Source: an uncultured Candidatus Saccharibacteria bacterium (GTDB taxonomy: Bacteria > Patescibacteriota > Minisyncoccia > UBA6257 > JAUSGH01). From it: 50,797 bases of DNA. The stretch is taken from positions 1 to 50,797 of the forward strand of contig CAYHUD010000005.1 of NCBI GenBank assembly GCA_964360025.1, read 5' to 3'. The position numbers were made by a program, and so were the translations under genes. The first letter of the stretch is position 1. Every line of letters begins with the position of its first letter. Below the pieces are notes generated by a model that saw only the letters and a program-made list of their open reading frames with translations, was not told the origin of the DNA and made no database searches. This document shows, piece after piece, positions 48,086-50,797 of this stretch.

Positions 48086-48772
48086 ATGGTAGTACAAGAT
48101 TGGTTGAATGTAGTAACGATTTCGCTGCAGAACTTGTGGCAGCTCGTCATCAGTTTTTTGCCAGCTCTTTTAGGGGCTTTGGTGATTCTCATAGTCGGGC
48201 TTATTGTTGCCTCCGGCTTGGAAAGACTGGTGGAGCGCCTCGTTTTCTATTTAAAAATAGACGCGATGCTTCGCAAGTTGGGTGTAGAATCGTTTTTAGG
48301 AAGGGCTAGTGTGGCGCTTAACTCCGGACGCTTTATGGGGAAAATTGTCTATTGGTTTATTCTGGTGGCATTCTTTCTTGCCGCATCTGATGTTCTGGGC
48401 TTCGCCGCTCTTTCTGGTTTCTTAAACGATGTTCTCCTTTATATCCCGAATGTTCTGGTCGCCGCGTTGATTGTCATCGCCGCGGTAGTTGTGGCCAACT
48501 TCGTGAGGGGACTGGTTGCCGCTTCTGTCATGGGAGCAAGACTGCATGCCGCTAAGTTTTTAGGCACTGTGGCCTGGTGGGTCATCATGGTCTTCGGACT
48601 TTTGACCTCCGCCGTCCAGCTGAATATCGCCGTTTCTATTATTAACACGGTTATCACGGGTTTGATCGCTATGTTGGCTTTAGCCGGAGGCCTGGCCTTT
48701 GGTTTGGGCGGACGCGATGCCGCGATGAGATGGGTTAATAAGATGGAAGACGAGATGTTGCATAGAGGTTAA
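48086..48772 (+). CDS. TM-helix repeat protein (CmpX/MscS N-terminal-like)
   Basis: FLPALLGALVILIVG and YIPNVLVAALI repeats; ALAGGLAFGLGGRD. Confidence 0.85.
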   Translation: MVVQDWLNVVTISLQNLWQLVISFLPALLGALVILIVGLIVASGLERLVERLVFYLKIDAMLRKLGVESFLGRASVALNSGRFMGKIVYWFILVAFFLAASDVLGFAALSGFLNDVLLYIPNVLVAALIVIAAVVVANFVRGLVAASVMGARLHAAKFLGTVAWWVIMVFGLLTSAVQLNIAVSIINTVITGLIAMLALAGGLAFGLGGRDAAMRWVNKMEDEMLHRG

Positions 48773-48884
48773 AATTGTTCGCGGTCTGCATGGGATTGCG
48801 CAATAAACAAAAACATCCTGTAAAGCAGGATGTTTTTGTTTTATAAAAAAGAAAACCCCTCGTTGCGCCTGCAACGAAGGGGGA

Positions 48885-48958
48885 TGCGCCCAGCTGGATT
48901 CGAACCAGCATCTTACGGATTATGAGTCCGCCGCTCTGACCAATTGAGCTATGGGCGC
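48885..48958 (-). tRNA. tRNA with CAT anticodon (Ile2 or elongator Met)
   Basis: gcgccca/tgggcgc acceptor, gcgga-ctCATaa-tccgt, gctgg-ttcgaat-ccagc; paired 1-72, so not an initiator. Confidence 0.92.
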
Positions 48959-48973
48959 GAACTTTTTCCGGAA

Positions 48974-49113
48974 TGCATCGAGCAGGACTTGTCACCCTAC
49001 GGGTGATCTCCCGTAGGGAGAAACCCGCAACCACCGGTTTACAAAACCGGAGCTCTACCCGCCTCGACTCGCGTAACTCGTCGACGCGAGGCGGGCCGTT
49101 GAGCTACGCTAGC
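48974..49113 (-). pseudogene. tRNA-Thr(TGT) interrupted by hairpin insertions in the D-loop and T-loop
   Basis: Removing 49058-49095 and 48992-49021 restores gctc-aacggta-gagc, ccggt-ttTGTaa-accgg and gcggg-ttcaagt-cctgc; the 3' acceptor strand is mismatched. Confidence 0.8.
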
Positions 49114-49197
49114 AAGAAGCCCCCCTCAATCAAACTAGGGTATCTGGTCAGAGTCCAGATGTCATTCGAGGGGGGGCCAGATCGAAAATTGGCGAAA

Positions 49198-49270
49198 TAC
49201 GCCGGGGAGGGATCGAACCTCCAACCGCAGGATTAGAAATCCCGTGCTCTTCCGGTTGAGCTACCGGCGC
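49198..49270 (-). tRNA. tRNA-Arg(TCT)
   Basis: gcgccgg/ccggcgt acceptor, cggga-ttTCTaa-tcctg, ggagg-ttcgatc-cctcc. Confidence 0.93.
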
Positions 49271-49415
49271 GATGAGAAAATTAAGTTGCTGCTACACATT
49301 ATAGCAGATATATTACGTTTGTCAATGGCAAGGCATTGACAGTAATCGATAAATTTGATATACTACACTCGTTCGTTAACAATAAATCCCAGAGTTCTTT
49401 TTGAGGGTATAAACC

Positions 49416-50009
49416 ATGACGCAGGTTTCCCAACTCATCGCCGCAGTGGTGAAAATGATTCATTCCCTCACGCCGGAGCGCGTGAAGTATTGGATGGAAA
49501 ATTTGAAACAACTCAAAGAAATTCTAGTCGGAGGGGTGAGTCGGATAGCGGGGGCGGCGAAAAACGTCTTCGTTGTCAACTTCTCCCTCCCTCGCGCATC
49601 CGCCCTCGCTTTGGGGAAGTTCAAATGGGTGGCTCCTTCCCTCGCAGACGGTCCCTTTCCTCTTGGCGAAGGCGAGGGTCAGAAGACTCTCGTCCCCGAT
49701 CTCGTCGGTGGTCTGGGCTACTGCAAAAATACGGCAGAAGCCCAAGAGAAACTTGCAGCAAAGCTCCGGGAGCGTGGTCTCGGCGAAAAGCCGATGACTC
49801 CCAGAGAGTTTGCGGCTTTCGCTGGAGCTTATCCCGAGCTTTGTCAAGGCAAGTGGATCGGCATTCTTGGCTCTGTCGGCTGGGGCGCGGGCGGGCGCCA
49901 GTGTGTGGCGTATTTCGGCGGCACGTCTGGCCGCTGGGGCCTCGGTCTTATCTTGGTCGAGGACGATTGGAACGACGACTGGGTCTTCGCTGTTTCTCGC
50001 GAGTTGTAA
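49416..50009 (+). CDS. DGR target protein with C-terminal variable region
   Basis: Last 44 codons before ELstop are the VR; ORF is intact despite 20 substitutions relative to TR. Confidence 0.92.
   Translation: MTQVSQLIAAVVKMIHSLTPERVKYWMENLKQLKEILVGGVSRIAGAAKNVFVVNFSLPRASALALGKFKWVAPSLADGPFPLGEGEGQKTLVPDLVGGLGYCKNTAEAQEKLAAKLRERGLGEKPMTPREFAAFAGAYPELCQGKWIGILGSVGWGAGGRQCVAYFGGTSGRWGLGLILVEDDWNDDWVFAVSREL
49869..50000 (+). repeat. DGR variable repeat (VR)
   Basis: 132-bp ungapped match to 50309-50440 with 20 mismatches, all opposite TR adenines. Confidence 0.96.
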
Positions 50010-50051
50010 CTTGGATTTTGTTGGGCCCCTTGGCCCTTGGTCTTGTTCGTC

Positions 50052-50093
50052 GGCTGAAGCTGTACCAACAGTTTCAGCCTACGGACTTTTTTT
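50052..50093 (+). terminator. Hairpin downstream of the target gene (terminator and/or DGR homing hairpin)
   Basis: ggctgaagctgt-acca-acagtttcagcc, then a T tract. Confidence 0.6.
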
Positions 50094-50308
50094 ATATAAT
50101 AAATATCGGATAGTAAATGACAAGCTCGTGGTTACGCTGAGAGGCAAGCTTCGGGCGATTGAACTCCGGAATATCGCGTGATTTTAGCGATATTGTCATA
50201 AAAATGAAGAAACTCGGCGCAACCCACTAGGGGATTAACGATCTCGAATACGATACAACCCCGAGAGTATTCAAGGGGTGGTGGCTTGGGCGGTGGGTTG
50301 CGCACAGC

Positions 50309-50440
50309 GGCTCTGTCGGCAAGAACGCGGACAGGCGCCAGTGTGTGGCGTATTTCAACGGCACGAATGGCAACTGGAACCTCAATCTTAACTTGGTCAA
50401 GAACGATTGGAACGACAACTGGGTCTTCGCTGTTTCTCGC
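50309..50440 (+). repeat. DGR template repeat (TR)
   Basis: A-rich copy of VR; in the VR frame it reads GSVGKNADRRQCVAYFNGTNGNWNLNLNLVKNDWNDNWVFAVSR with 10 AAY codons. Confidence 0.96.
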
Positions 50441-50453
50441 TAGTAGCTTCATT

Positions 50454-50471
50454 CTCCCCCATTTGGGGGAG
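50454..50471. terminator. Hairpin between the TR 3' end and the avd stop
   Basis: ctccccc-attt-gggggag. Confidence 0.55.
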
Positions 50472-50472
50472 T

Positions 50473-50796
50473 TTATATTAACTTCTTTTTCCAACCGCCA
50501 AGCATCTTTCCGATTTCAACAAGGGGTTGTGATAAGGCGATATATTTATTTTTATCAATAGCATTTATTTCCCAAGCGATTTGTAGAAAGAATTTTAACA
50601 TGCCTAGATTTATGTCAGCGTTAATAATAGCGTGTAGTTTTTGTAATTGGGTATGATAACCAGCAGAAAGAATATCCGATATAAGATTTGTGAATAATTT
50701 GTCTATTTTCTCTCCGAGTGTGTAGCGCGATAATCGTGGAAAGTGCGGAAAGAAATTATGCCAAAGTTTGTATACAAAAATTAACTTCTGTAAAAT
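50473..50796 (-). CDS. avd: DGR accessory variability determinant Avd, 5' truncated by window edge (absent from the ORF track)
   Basis: Hand translation ILQKLIFVYKLWHNFFPHFPRLSRYTLGEKID...LKFFLQIAWE...YIALSQPLVEIGKMLGGWKKKLI*; FP+..RY.LG and EIG+MLGGW are Avd signatures; adjacent to TR. Confidence 0.88.
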   Translation of the reverse strand: MLQKLIFVYKLWHNFFPHFPRLSRYTLGEKIDKLFTNLISDILSAGYHTQLQKLHAIINADINLGMLKFFLQIAWEINAIDKNKYIALSQPLVEIGKMLGGWKKKLI

Positions 50797-50797
50797 T

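Follow-up and report, generated by a model that had tools for sequence, protein, structure and literature searches.

A conserved structured leader precedes the TR of a Saccharibacteria DGR and may carry a circularly permuted BPP-1-like priming module

The TR of the DGR at the end of the window, by which we mean the whole stretch of 50,797 nt analysed here from a contig of an uncultured Candidatus Saccharibacteria bacterium, is preceded by a genuine conserved RNA. This leader folds into a three-way junction whose helices covary among relatives, and the box at its 5′ side is complementary to the 3′ end of the TR and, more perfectly, to the IMH of the VR. We consider it probable that the TR belongs to a self-contained RNA in which an Sp-like priming module has been moved to the 5′ side, in the manner of a circular permutation; with such a module, readthrough into the antisense avd would not be needed. 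The features on which the argument draws are the following.

49416–50009, + strand: target gene, an ORF of 197 aa with a C-terminal VR (49869–50006) and an IMH core CGAGTT (50000–50005)
50023–50036, + strand: GC-rich inverted repeat GGGCCCCTTGGCCC, 14 nt past the target stop codon, its stem found in a hairpin scan
50095–50100, + strand: predicted −10 box TATAAT of the TR RNA, from an aligned column and an upstream hexamer count
50107–50197, + strand: distal leader, including a variable hairpin (50170–50194), with conserved blocks in the alignment
50198–50216, + strand: 5′ box, proposed primer strand, from its complementarity to the TR 3′ end and the VR IMH
50217–50303, + strand: three-way-junction core of the leader, from RNAalifold, covariance model R1 and covariation
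50217–50228/50292–50303, + strand: P1 of the leader core
50231–50236/50240–50245, + strand: P2 of the leader core
50246–50253, + strand: J2/3 of the leader core
50254–50261/50276–50283, + strand: P3 of the leader core
50284–50291, + strand: J3/1 of the leader core
50309–50446, + strand: TR, 138 nt, from the TR/VR alignment
50454–50479, + strand: terminator-like post-TR hairpin (50454–50471, CTCCCCC/ATTT/GGGGGAG, 7 bp) with a T-rich tail
50473–50796, − strand: avd (accessory variability determinant), Pfam PF22296 bAvd, its 5′ end cut by the contig end

The end of the window is a DGR of the published CPR type, Architecture B3, in which target/VR, TR, reversed avd and RT follow one another. According to the text available to us of Wu et al. 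(2018, NAR 46:11, PMC5758913), this TR-(avd)-RT architecture makes up 90% of their CPR set. The preliminary description of this DNA had treated the layout as an unusual inversion; it is an ordinary one, already in print. The orientations given there are confirmed by the ORFs, the TR/VR alignment and the bAvd match: the target gene lies on the + strand, on which VR and TR form direct repeats, and avd lies on the − strand, convergent on the TR. The short distance from the TR to the avd stop codon also stands, but the figure of 33 nt does not: the stop codon (50473–50475) begins 26–28 nt past the end of TR homology, depending on the TR end chosen, and across 13 loci this gap ranges from −6 to 49 nt. 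The 7-bp hairpin described between the two is present. The avd product matches bAvd with E = 5e-18 and 66 bits (cut-off 40) over profile positions 5–106 of 107, as expected of a DGR Avd.

Likeness to Architecture B3, as set out in the accessible part of Wu et al. (2018), extends from the order of target/VR, TR and reverse-strand avd to the small groundwater genome (here 682 kb, scored 100% complete) and to the next gene, which in relatives is an RT on the TR strand. Gene layout reveals no difference; the RT is absent here, the contig ending inside avd, and the placement of avd between TR and RT is therefore judged on its RT side from relatives, the window itself having avd on the − strand directly after the TR. 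A search with PF00078 gave no match in the 25-contig assembly, and no other contig end of the assembly overlaps this one. In relatives, the RT starts about 40–90 nt beyond the avd start, a position of which our contig end falls some 50–60 nt short, and a contig from a public run extends 669 nt further than the window. The RT probably lies just past the contig end. Homologues of avd occur in 16 of 61 related genomes, and in this first set of 16 avd loci 14 adjacent ORFs were RVT_1. Since the RT directly follows avd in relatives, the idea that this avd might serve a second TR further to the right falls away. Wu et al. (2018) describe the gene order and, in the text we had, no leader RNA.

The TR/VR pair has the properties of a DGR. 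Twenty-one of the 22 differences in the alignment fall on TR adenines, the last of them in GACAACTGGG, about 22 nt before G50439. The TR ends in CGCTAGTAG (50438–50446), its IMH*, where the VR carries CGCGAGTTG, and a GC-rich inverted repeat follows the VR. The latter resembles the inverted repeat downstream of the IMH in known DGRs, its putative role being taken from the accessible parts of Wu et al. (2018) and Naorem et al. (2017). Similar repeats trail VR-like copies on two other contigs (C18 and C21). The VR on C18, the second in this assembly, differs from the TR at 22 adenines and 15 other bases over the whole alignment; by eye, the non-adenine differences cluster in its 5′ flank. No Pfam family matched the target gene product in a Pfam search. 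Among 12 public sequencing runs found to carry this DNA, none is recorded as RNA. We saw no VR differences between the four public DNA runs compared; contigs were broken up around the VR in three of them, which is at most a hint of heterogeneity. In the same public runs, the leader core sequence 50246–50292 is common to many foreign contigs.

Several lines of evidence establish the leader as a conserved RNA. Folding of 50160–50310 gave z = −3.07, with 3 of 200 shuffles folding equally well, and RNAalifold called 25 consensus pairs in the leaders of 10 loci. Covariance model R1 matched 40 of 151 genomes of the order (55 matches) and 24 of 151 genomes sampled across the phylum. In the aligned R1 matches, 93.9% of pair cells are paired, as against 31–52% when the partners are slid; 21 of the 25 pairs have changed on both sides, and none of 500 shuffles reached the observed values. 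The outer stem and the two inner helices all covary in the 55 homologues. The preliminary description had credited the TR with its own structured leader, to be discarded if neither conservation nor covariation were seen; both are present. Its perfect 11-bp stem (50217–50227/50293–50303) is exact in the sequence, a U.G pair (50228:50292) extending P1 to 12, and its aatatcgc/gcgatatt hairpin is present at 50170–77/50187–94. The gaatac/gtattc stem that it placed inside P1 (50246–51/50267–72) can also be read in the sequence, but is not a conserved helix: 67% of its cells are paired, a value reached by 378 of 500 shuffles, with no covariation, and the consensus structure has P2 and P3 in its place. 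Further upstream, the alignment of the distal leader shows a conserved GGATAGTA stretch, a hairpin whose loop resembles CGGYTACGGCTT, and GAAYTCCRG; a stem-loop domain that varies in size comes next. An Rfam search of 48700–50797 (E up to 1) returned nothing on 50107–50480, only two tRNAs and chance matches.

The leader travels with the DGR. A TR/VR pair with adenine-specific differences follows it in 45 of the 55 loci, TR homology mostly starting −4 to +2 nt from the end of the leader model. A full antisense avd lies 100–260 nt past the leader in 45 of the 55 matches, and in 38 it is joined by a complete RT encoded on the TR strand; five more are cut by contig ends, our window included. Antisense avd accompanies the leader in 50 of 55. 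This association weighs against a regulatory or processing role, in which the three-way junction at the 5′ side would sense a ligand or protein, stabilise the TR RNA or offer an RNase site and would not be a primer module, priming then being target-primed or supplied in trans. A structured 5′ leader with a promoter and a downstream terminator is typical of cis-regulators, and the unpaired stretches GAAUACGAUAC and GGUGGC are highly conserved. However, the motif stands beside a TR in 45 of the 55 matches and with antisense avd in 50, its 5′ box favours IMH over IMH* in a way specific to DGR primers, and the terminator comes after the TR and not between leader and TR, which leaves no expression platform for the TR. 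We therefore give a purely regulatory leader very little credence, and favour the priming module.

The signature of a primer strand resides in the 5′ box. In the window, 50203–50209 can pair with 50447–50453, 50212–50214 with 50442–50444 and G50216 with C50440, whereas 50211–50216 (AACTCG), in the 3′ half of the box, is a perfect complement of the VR IMH (50000–50005). Across 40 loci, box position 16 pairs with the VR in 38 and with the TR in 13, and position 14 in 35 and 12 respectively; the mean contiguous run from position 19 is 7.0 with the VR and 2.5 with the TR, being longer with the VR in 34 loci, equal in three and shorter in three. These counts leave out 7 of 47 rows in which the ungapped extension was out of register (L046, L055, L056, L057, L080, L086 and L089). 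In 11 of the 40 loci an exact complement of an IMH 8-mer is present at box position 12, and the 33,414 nt of sense strand (−130 to +600) contain no other. As a control, Sp47–56 of BPP-1 gave ||.|||:|.. against TR118–127 and |||||||||: against VR118–127. The same BPP-1 pairing, perfect to IMH and imperfect to IMH*, is given in the Discussion of Naorem et al. (2017, PMC5703328), which we could consult in part.

Pairing of the box with the block after the TR forms a long-range helix, P0, in which 68.9% of cells are paired compared with 36–49% in slid registers; several of its pairs covary (for example 13:9, AT in 17, CG in 15 and TA in 8). P0 is weak in the window, with 7, 3 and 1 bp separated by mismatches, and family-wide it has two conserved mismatches. 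The MFE fold of 50107–50480 keeps P1–P3 and the terminal hairpin but, in place of P0, joins the TR 3′ end to the distant 5′ part of the leader; P0 was retained on comparative evidence only. At its end, G(20) stands opposite G(2) in 52 of 53 sequences. Because G(20) at the same time opens P1 (as a GC pair in 45 of 54), there is no 2-nt spacer between primer and stop duplex, unlike in BPP-1. An adenine difference between TR and VR lies 3′ of G(2) in 15 of 45 loci, which counts against a clear cDNA start; by eye, those in positions 3 and 6 of the block seem to be fixed differences between IMH and IMH*, the VR usually having C and G there.

Both ends of a TR transcript can be predicted. Of 54 loci, 44 have in the corresponding upstream zone a hexamer with at least five of six matches to the −10 box (20.7 expected by shuffling), 25 of them with TGn, and transcription is expected to start near 50107. 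A consensus promoter scan did not call the TATAAT at 50095–50100, because there is no −35 box. After the TR, a terminator-like hairpin, defined as one of −7 kcal/mol or stronger with at least five T in the next 9 nt, is found in 37 of the 55 loci and is absent by the same criteria from 18. The T-run overlaps the avd stop codon and the last, Lys-rich codons of avd, so that coding may partly explain it. The predicted promoter and this hairpin fit the separate non-coding TR transcript that the preliminary description had offered as one option.

Its other option, a transcript that reads into avd, corresponds to a BPP-1-like arrangement: the TR RNA would run through the hairpin into antisense avd and perhaps the RT, priming and RT-binding elements would lie downstream, and the leader would serve as the upstream strand of the stop duplex or for stability only. 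We regard this as unlikely, although it has precedent. As far as Handa et al. (bioRxiv 10.1101/2023.10.23.563531) was accessible to us, all Sp elements of BPP-1 are downstream of the TR, and putative downstream Avd-binding stem-loops and upstream/downstream duplexes are reported in 207 of 278 Avd-type DGRs, CPR included. The 18 loci devoid of a terminator-like hairpin are also in its favour, and the RT starts so close behind avd that little room is left for a promoter of its own; some readthrough from the TR promoter may thus be needed for RT expression. Within the window, CCAACCGCCAAGC (50497–50509) can pair by eye with GCTTGGGCGGTGG of the leader, but relatives do not retain this pairing, by eye, and its downstream half is antisense to the conserved MLGGW codons at the Avd C-terminus. 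The pairing of leader GCTTGGGCGG with downstream CCGCCAAGC was discarded on the same two grounds, again by eye as regards relatives. For the same 10 loci, RNAalifold found no consensus pair from the TR end to +155, a weak test given that the hairpin was missed as well. Between −130 and +600 the sense strand complements the VR IMH exactly at one place only, the upstream box, and P1 pairs two strands that are both upstream of the TR, so that no downstream partner is needed.

Convergence of the TR RNA with avd, over the small gaps noted above, could also mean antisense control, the TR RNA lowering Avd by transcriptional interference or by forming an RNA duplex and so tuning DGR activity. The U-tail is on the TR strand only, so avd transcripts may enter the TR, and terminators leak. 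Such control could coexist with the self-contained TR RNA that we favour, but nothing in the sequence demands it, and the strong terminator-like hairpin that 37 of 55 loci have ahead of avd speaks for little readthrough. The preliminary description had raised this control, for which we found no support in the sequence; we hold it to be quite improbable.

Our preferred explanation, towards which we lean by somewhat more than an even chance, is that the RNA of B3-type CPR DGRs is a circular permutation of the BPP-1 RNA. Primer strand, stop duplex and RT-binding elements would stand 5′ of the TR, the end hairpin would be both Avd handle and terminator, and a 5′ leader fragment would stay on the cDNA, its box docking on the target IMH. 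The anatomy of the sequence, its conservation and covariation, the order of the genes and the IMH/IMH* signature are observed; where the transcript ends, what binds, where priming starts and which element corresponds to which are inferred. The TR would sit inside its own small non-coding RNA gene, made up of a −10 box (near 50095), roughly 200 nt of leader, the 138-nt TR and a hairpin with a U-rich tail (50454–50479) that probably stops most transcripts short of avd. We take the 111 nt of leader nearest the TR, comprising the 5′ box and the three-way junction, as the functional equivalent of the BPP-1 Sp RNA. Judged by order, size and position, and not by sequence homology, the box would correspond to the primer strand (Sp47–56), with an imperfect match to IMH* at the TR 3′ end and a full match to the VR IMH; P1, abutting the TR 5′ edge, to the stop duplex; P2, the A-rich joiner and P3 to the short stem-loop, the thumb ring and the RT-binding stem-loop; and the post-TR hairpin to the Avd-binding stem-loop, for which it is a candidate equivalent of Sp3–33 (after the accessible text of Handa et al.). 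Cis-priming of the cDNA would take place at about G50216, G50439 being copied first, and synthesis would halt before P1; through the RNA box still joined to it, the cDNA would then be led to the target gene's IMH. A different priming, as put forward in the preliminary description, is not needed, since the leader strand has the primer signature of BPP-1 Sp47–56; the chemistry is probably that of BPP-1, the module alone being placed elsewhere.

Few natural systems diversify proteins as strongly as DGRs, most known cases of which come from CPR bacteria. To our knowledge, all mechanistic work on DGRs concerns the element of phage BPP-1, whose RNA layout is inapplicable where a reversed avd sits right behind the TR. 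A leader motif with a testable primer strand provides a concrete RNA construct for reconstituting a CPR DGR, and as an annotation tool the motif can locate TRs with no VR required for the search. If the permutation is real, these DGRs use a compact, self-contained template RNA of about 370 nt, and the DGR ribonucleoprotein tolerates a rewired RNA topology. The leader box also lends independent comparative support to the IMH as a landing site for the primer RNA, as we understand that role from the portion of Naorem et al. (2017, PMC5703328) at hand. A full-text literature search, with the supplements of Handa et al. and Paul et al. (2017) outside its reach, turned up no paper on an upstream leader or permuted RNA in CPR DGRs. 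The survey of Handa et al. (bioRxiv 10.1101/2023.10.23.563531), in the version available to us, took only 40 nt upstream and 100 nt downstream of the TR, a span that omits the 5′ box, the 5′ arm of P1, P2 and part of P3 (about −111 to −41).

Compared with BPP-1, as far as the consulted parts of Naorem et al. (2017, PMC5703328) and Handa et al. (bioRxiv 10.1101/2023.10.23.563531) describe it, the likenesses are those of anatomy. In both RNAs the known or proposed primer strand is a perfect complement of the VR IMH and an imperfect one of the TR 3′ end (Naorem et al., 2017, for BPP-1), and a duplex of about 12 bp abuts the TR 5′ edge (Handa et al.). On the primer-strand side of this duplex follow a short stem-loop, an A-rich single strand and a longer interrupted stem-loop; another stem-loop stands directly 3′ of the TR, and a G faces a G at the start site (Sp G57 and TR G117 in BPP-1; Handa et al.). 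The two RNAs have no detectable sequence similarity, and their equivalence is proposed on this anatomy. In the BPP-1 RNA the order is avd 3′ end, TR, Sp, whereas here the whole module is 5′ of the TR, on one covalent chain with the upstream arm of the stop duplex, which places the permutation break between the post-TR stem-loop and the primer strand. Here, too, the post-TR hairpin has a terminator-like U-tail and avd is reversed. RNAs of the BPP-1 type are further characterised by RT and Avd binding to their elements and by cis-priming from a 2′-OH or a nicked 3′-OH. A 3′ Sp of about 140 nt on the TR strand, as in BPP-1-type RNAs, has no place in the 26–28 nt before the avd stop codon, with a terminator-like hairpin between, but the preference of the primer strand for the VR IMH over the TR IMH*, another mark of that type, is displayed by the upstream box, with longer runs to the VR in 34 of 40 loci. 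We thus do not class this RNA as BPP-1-type, yet it probably works like one.

The window comprises the whole of contig C5, from a genome of 682 kb in 25 contigs (completeness score 100%), and the DNA runs containing this stretch are labelled as groundwater metagenomes; from genome size and habitat, the organism would be a CPR/Patescibacteria bacterium. Its diversity-generating retroelement (DGR) includes a target gene with a variable repeat (VR), a structured leader RNA with helices P1 to P3, a template repeat (TR) and the accessory gene avd.

Features of the DGR (forward-strand coordinates)
49416-50009, + strand: target ORF, 197 aa, no Pfam family
49869-50006, + strand: VR, C-terminal in the target ORF, from the TR/VR alignment
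50095-50100, + strand: predicted -10 element TATAAT, directly after the terminator-like hairpin and T-run of the target gene
50198-50216, + strand: conserved 5' box, positions 1-19 of the leader model R1, complementary to a conserved block at and just past the TR 3' end
50217-50228/50292-50303, + strand: P1
50231-50236/50240-50245, + strand: P2
50254-50261/50276-50283, + strand: P3
50309-50446, + strand: TR, whose adenines are the site of 21 of the 22 TR/VR differences
50454-50471, + strand: post-TR hairpin, classed as terminator-like
50796-50473, - strand: avd, incomplete at the contig end; bAvd family, Pfam 5e-18

A PF00078 search found no reverse transcriptase (RT) gene anywhere in the 25-contig assembly, and none of its contig ends overlaps the end of C5. 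A 1309-nt contig from a public groundwater run spans 50158-50797 and extends 669 nt beyond the window end, into the region where relatives carry the RT. The same genome holds more VR-like copies of the window TR, at C18:10721-10838 (+), C10:1-79 (-) and C21:1-60 (+), all followed 3' by a GC-rich inverted repeat, and the assembly breaks in or near these repeats. The C18 copy differs from TR at 22 adenines, its IMH (the VR 3' element) resembles that of the C5 VR, and it seems to belong to a second target. The remaining paralogue, a third one, is more diverged and divided between the starts of C10 and C21; many of its differences are not at adenines, although several AAC codons are still as in TR. 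Upstream of the target gene, ~240 nt (48959-49197) between tRNA-Met (48885-48958, -) and tRNA-Arg (49198-49270, -) contain long GC-rich inverted repeats; segments of the - strand look tRNA-like by eye, with no ARAGORN gene and no Rfam match at E up to 1.

The convergence of TR and avd, which the preliminary description had presented as an inverted layout, is real in the window and in its relatives, but it is not new. An Avd search of 61 related genomes matched 16, from which 16 loci were retrieved; the TR strand, deduced from adenine-specific mismatches, converges on avd in most of them, and in the 14 ORFs tested the reading frame beyond avd, on the TR strand, is an RVT_1 RT. This position of the RT disposes of the possibility that avd is tied to a second TR further right. 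The layout of the window is Architecture B3, already known and defined as "TR-(avd)-RT" by Wu et al. 2018 (PMC5758913). The avd stop, formerly placed 33 nt after TR, lies 26-28 nt past the end of TR/VR homology.

Every hairpin previously drawn around TR was found in place, and the region 50160-50310 folds with z = -3.07; the inner gaatac/gtattc stem gained no support when tested across homologues. Ten homologous leaders could be aligned, with variable insertions, and their RNAalifold consensus is a three-way junction made up of P1, P2 and P3; compensatory changes occur in 18 of its 25 pairs. The covariance model R1 matched 40 of 151 genomes in an order sample (55 hits) and 24 of 151 in a phylum-wide sample. 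Across the 55 aligned hits, standard pairs fill 93.9% of pair cells versus 31-52% with slid partners, and none of 500 shuffles reached the observed values, the slid controls being the fairer comparison since this alignment was fitted to R1. Both sides change in 21 of the 25 pairs, which bears out the leader conservation and covariation by which the preliminary description had proposed to judge its own reading. No family in Rfam release 15 matches the leader, and a non-exhaustive literature search found no description of it. We conclude that B3 DGRs across the phylum have in this leader a genuine RNA motif.

Four groundwater DNA runs covering window positions 50246-50292 and 50528-50621 reach a summed contig depth of 105-216 over the leader core versus ~5 nearby, and each run contains five to eight foreign contigs that match the core only. 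Many other organisms of the same habitats carry the motif.

The leader belongs to the DGR. A full antisense avd lies 100-260 nt 3' of it at 45 of 55 hits, and at 38 of these the TR strand carries a full RT as well. Contig ends cut five hits (the window, L061, L062, L068 and L075), and the remaining ones are partial, decayed or without avd/RT genes, one being the upstream member of two leader-TR units in tandem. An adenine-specific TR/VR pair was found at 45 of the 55 loci, and TR homology mostly starts -4 to +2 nt from the R1 3' end, a few nucleotides past P1. At locus L070 (G138:C10:28219-31348), two leader-TR units with identical scores stand in tandem, 481 nt apart, with one antisense avd and one RT downstream of both; the TR of the downstream unit differs from the upstream unit at adenines only (10/10), so that one copy may serve as a VR-like or spare template.

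The 5' box and the block at and just past the TR 3' end would form a long-range helix, P0, in whose fixed register 68.9% of cells pair versus 36-49% in slid registers. Covariation is clear (e.g. 13:9 is AT 17, CG 15, TA 8); P0 also has two conserved mismatches and, where it meets P1, an almost invariant G facing G (52/53). When TR ends are compared with their VRs, the IMH usually reads CG followed by CAAGTAGC, and its TR counterpart, IMH*, differs at fixed positions. At 40 loci (47 rows less 7 out-of-register rows), box position 16 pairs with VR in 38 and with TR in 13, and position 14 in 35 and 12, respectively; positions 5-13 favour the TR flank, with pairing at 23-34 of 40 loci versus 10-27 of 40 for the VR flank. 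The mean contiguous run from position 19 is 2.5 against TR and 7.0 against VR, the VR run being longer at 34 loci, equal at 3 and shorter at 3. In 11 of 40 loci the box contains the exact complement of the IMH 8-mer, which has no other occurrence on the sense strand between -130 and +600 (33,414 nt). The window box includes AACTCG (50211-50216), perfectly complementary to VR CGAGTT (50000-50005) but with two mismatches to TR.

Upstream of the leader loci, the alignment has a conserved -10 column, often TGnTATAAT; a -10-like hexamer (at least 5 of 6 positions) occurs at 44 of 54 loci versus 20.7 expected from shuffles, with TGn in 25. Directly 3' of TR, 37 of 55 loci have a terminator-like hairpin (-7 kcal/mol or stronger, 5 or more T among the following 9 nt, no matching A-run before), the other 18 failing these thresholds, and the TR end lies -6 to 49 nt from the avd stop (13 loci). 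Taken together, promoter, terminator and spacing suggest a predicted TR RNA of ~370 nt (about 50107-50480), ending before avd. The T-run of the predicted terminator overlaps the avd stop and last codons, and the RT, starting close behind avd, may depend on some readthrough. A low-power test found no structure antisense to avd.

Several observations weigh against likening this leader to a permuted form of Sp, the spacer RNA 3' of TR in the reference DGR of Bordetella phage BPP-1. P0 is absent from the minimum free energy (MFE) fold of the predicted transcript and weak in the window, G(20) pairs inside P1 too, and at 15 of 45 loci TR and VR differ at an adenine that lies 3' of the proposed cDNA start; those differences, at block positions 3 and 6, look by eye like fixed IMH/IMH* differences. 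In the same MFE fold, the TR 3' end (50436-50453) pairs with 50116-50132, a second box-like sequence near the RNA 5' end (AAATGACAAGCTCG), and not with the proximal box; relatives have at this site a conserved GGATAGTAGG in the same sense as the IMH. This may be an alternative, resting pairing.

In BPP-1 (AY029185), Sp47-56 forms nine Watson-Crick pairs and one G.U with VR118-127, and has three non-standard positions with TR118-127. Naorem et al. 2017 (PMC5703328) state that pairing of the RNA primer is more extensive with the IMH of VR than with the IMH* of TR, and propose this bias as the reason for homing direction. The primer signature is already known for BPP-1 from that text; the addition made here is that in B3 its strand sits upstream of TR. 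According to Handa et al. (bioRxiv 10.1101/2023.10.23.563531), the Avd-binding stem-loop Sp3-33 directly follows TR, then comes the primer strand Sp47-56; G57 occupies the nucleotide site and faces G117, the template base that is copied first. Sp59-70 pairs with the sequence immediately 5' of TR in a 12-bp stop duplex, and after it come a short stem-loop, unpaired adenosines, the thumb ring, which is single-stranded, and an RT-binding stem-loop that is long and interrupted. In the CPR leader the elements stand in the same order: box, P1 5' arm, P2, an A-rich joiner (GAAUACGA), P3 with its variable insertions, and the P1 3' arm, which ends a few nucleotides short of TR; a stem-loop follows TR as the Avd-binding one does in that account of BPP-1. 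From this mapping, based on order, size and position only, we infer that the CPR arrangement is a circular permutation of the BPP-1 one, with its opening 3' of the post-TR stem-loop and 5' of the primer strand. The survey by Handa et al. used only 40 nt upstream of TR, so that the box and most of the junction would be missed. On balance, the most likely reading, held with moderate confidence, is that the leader, upstream of TR and in permuted form, takes the role of the BPP-1 spacer RNA.
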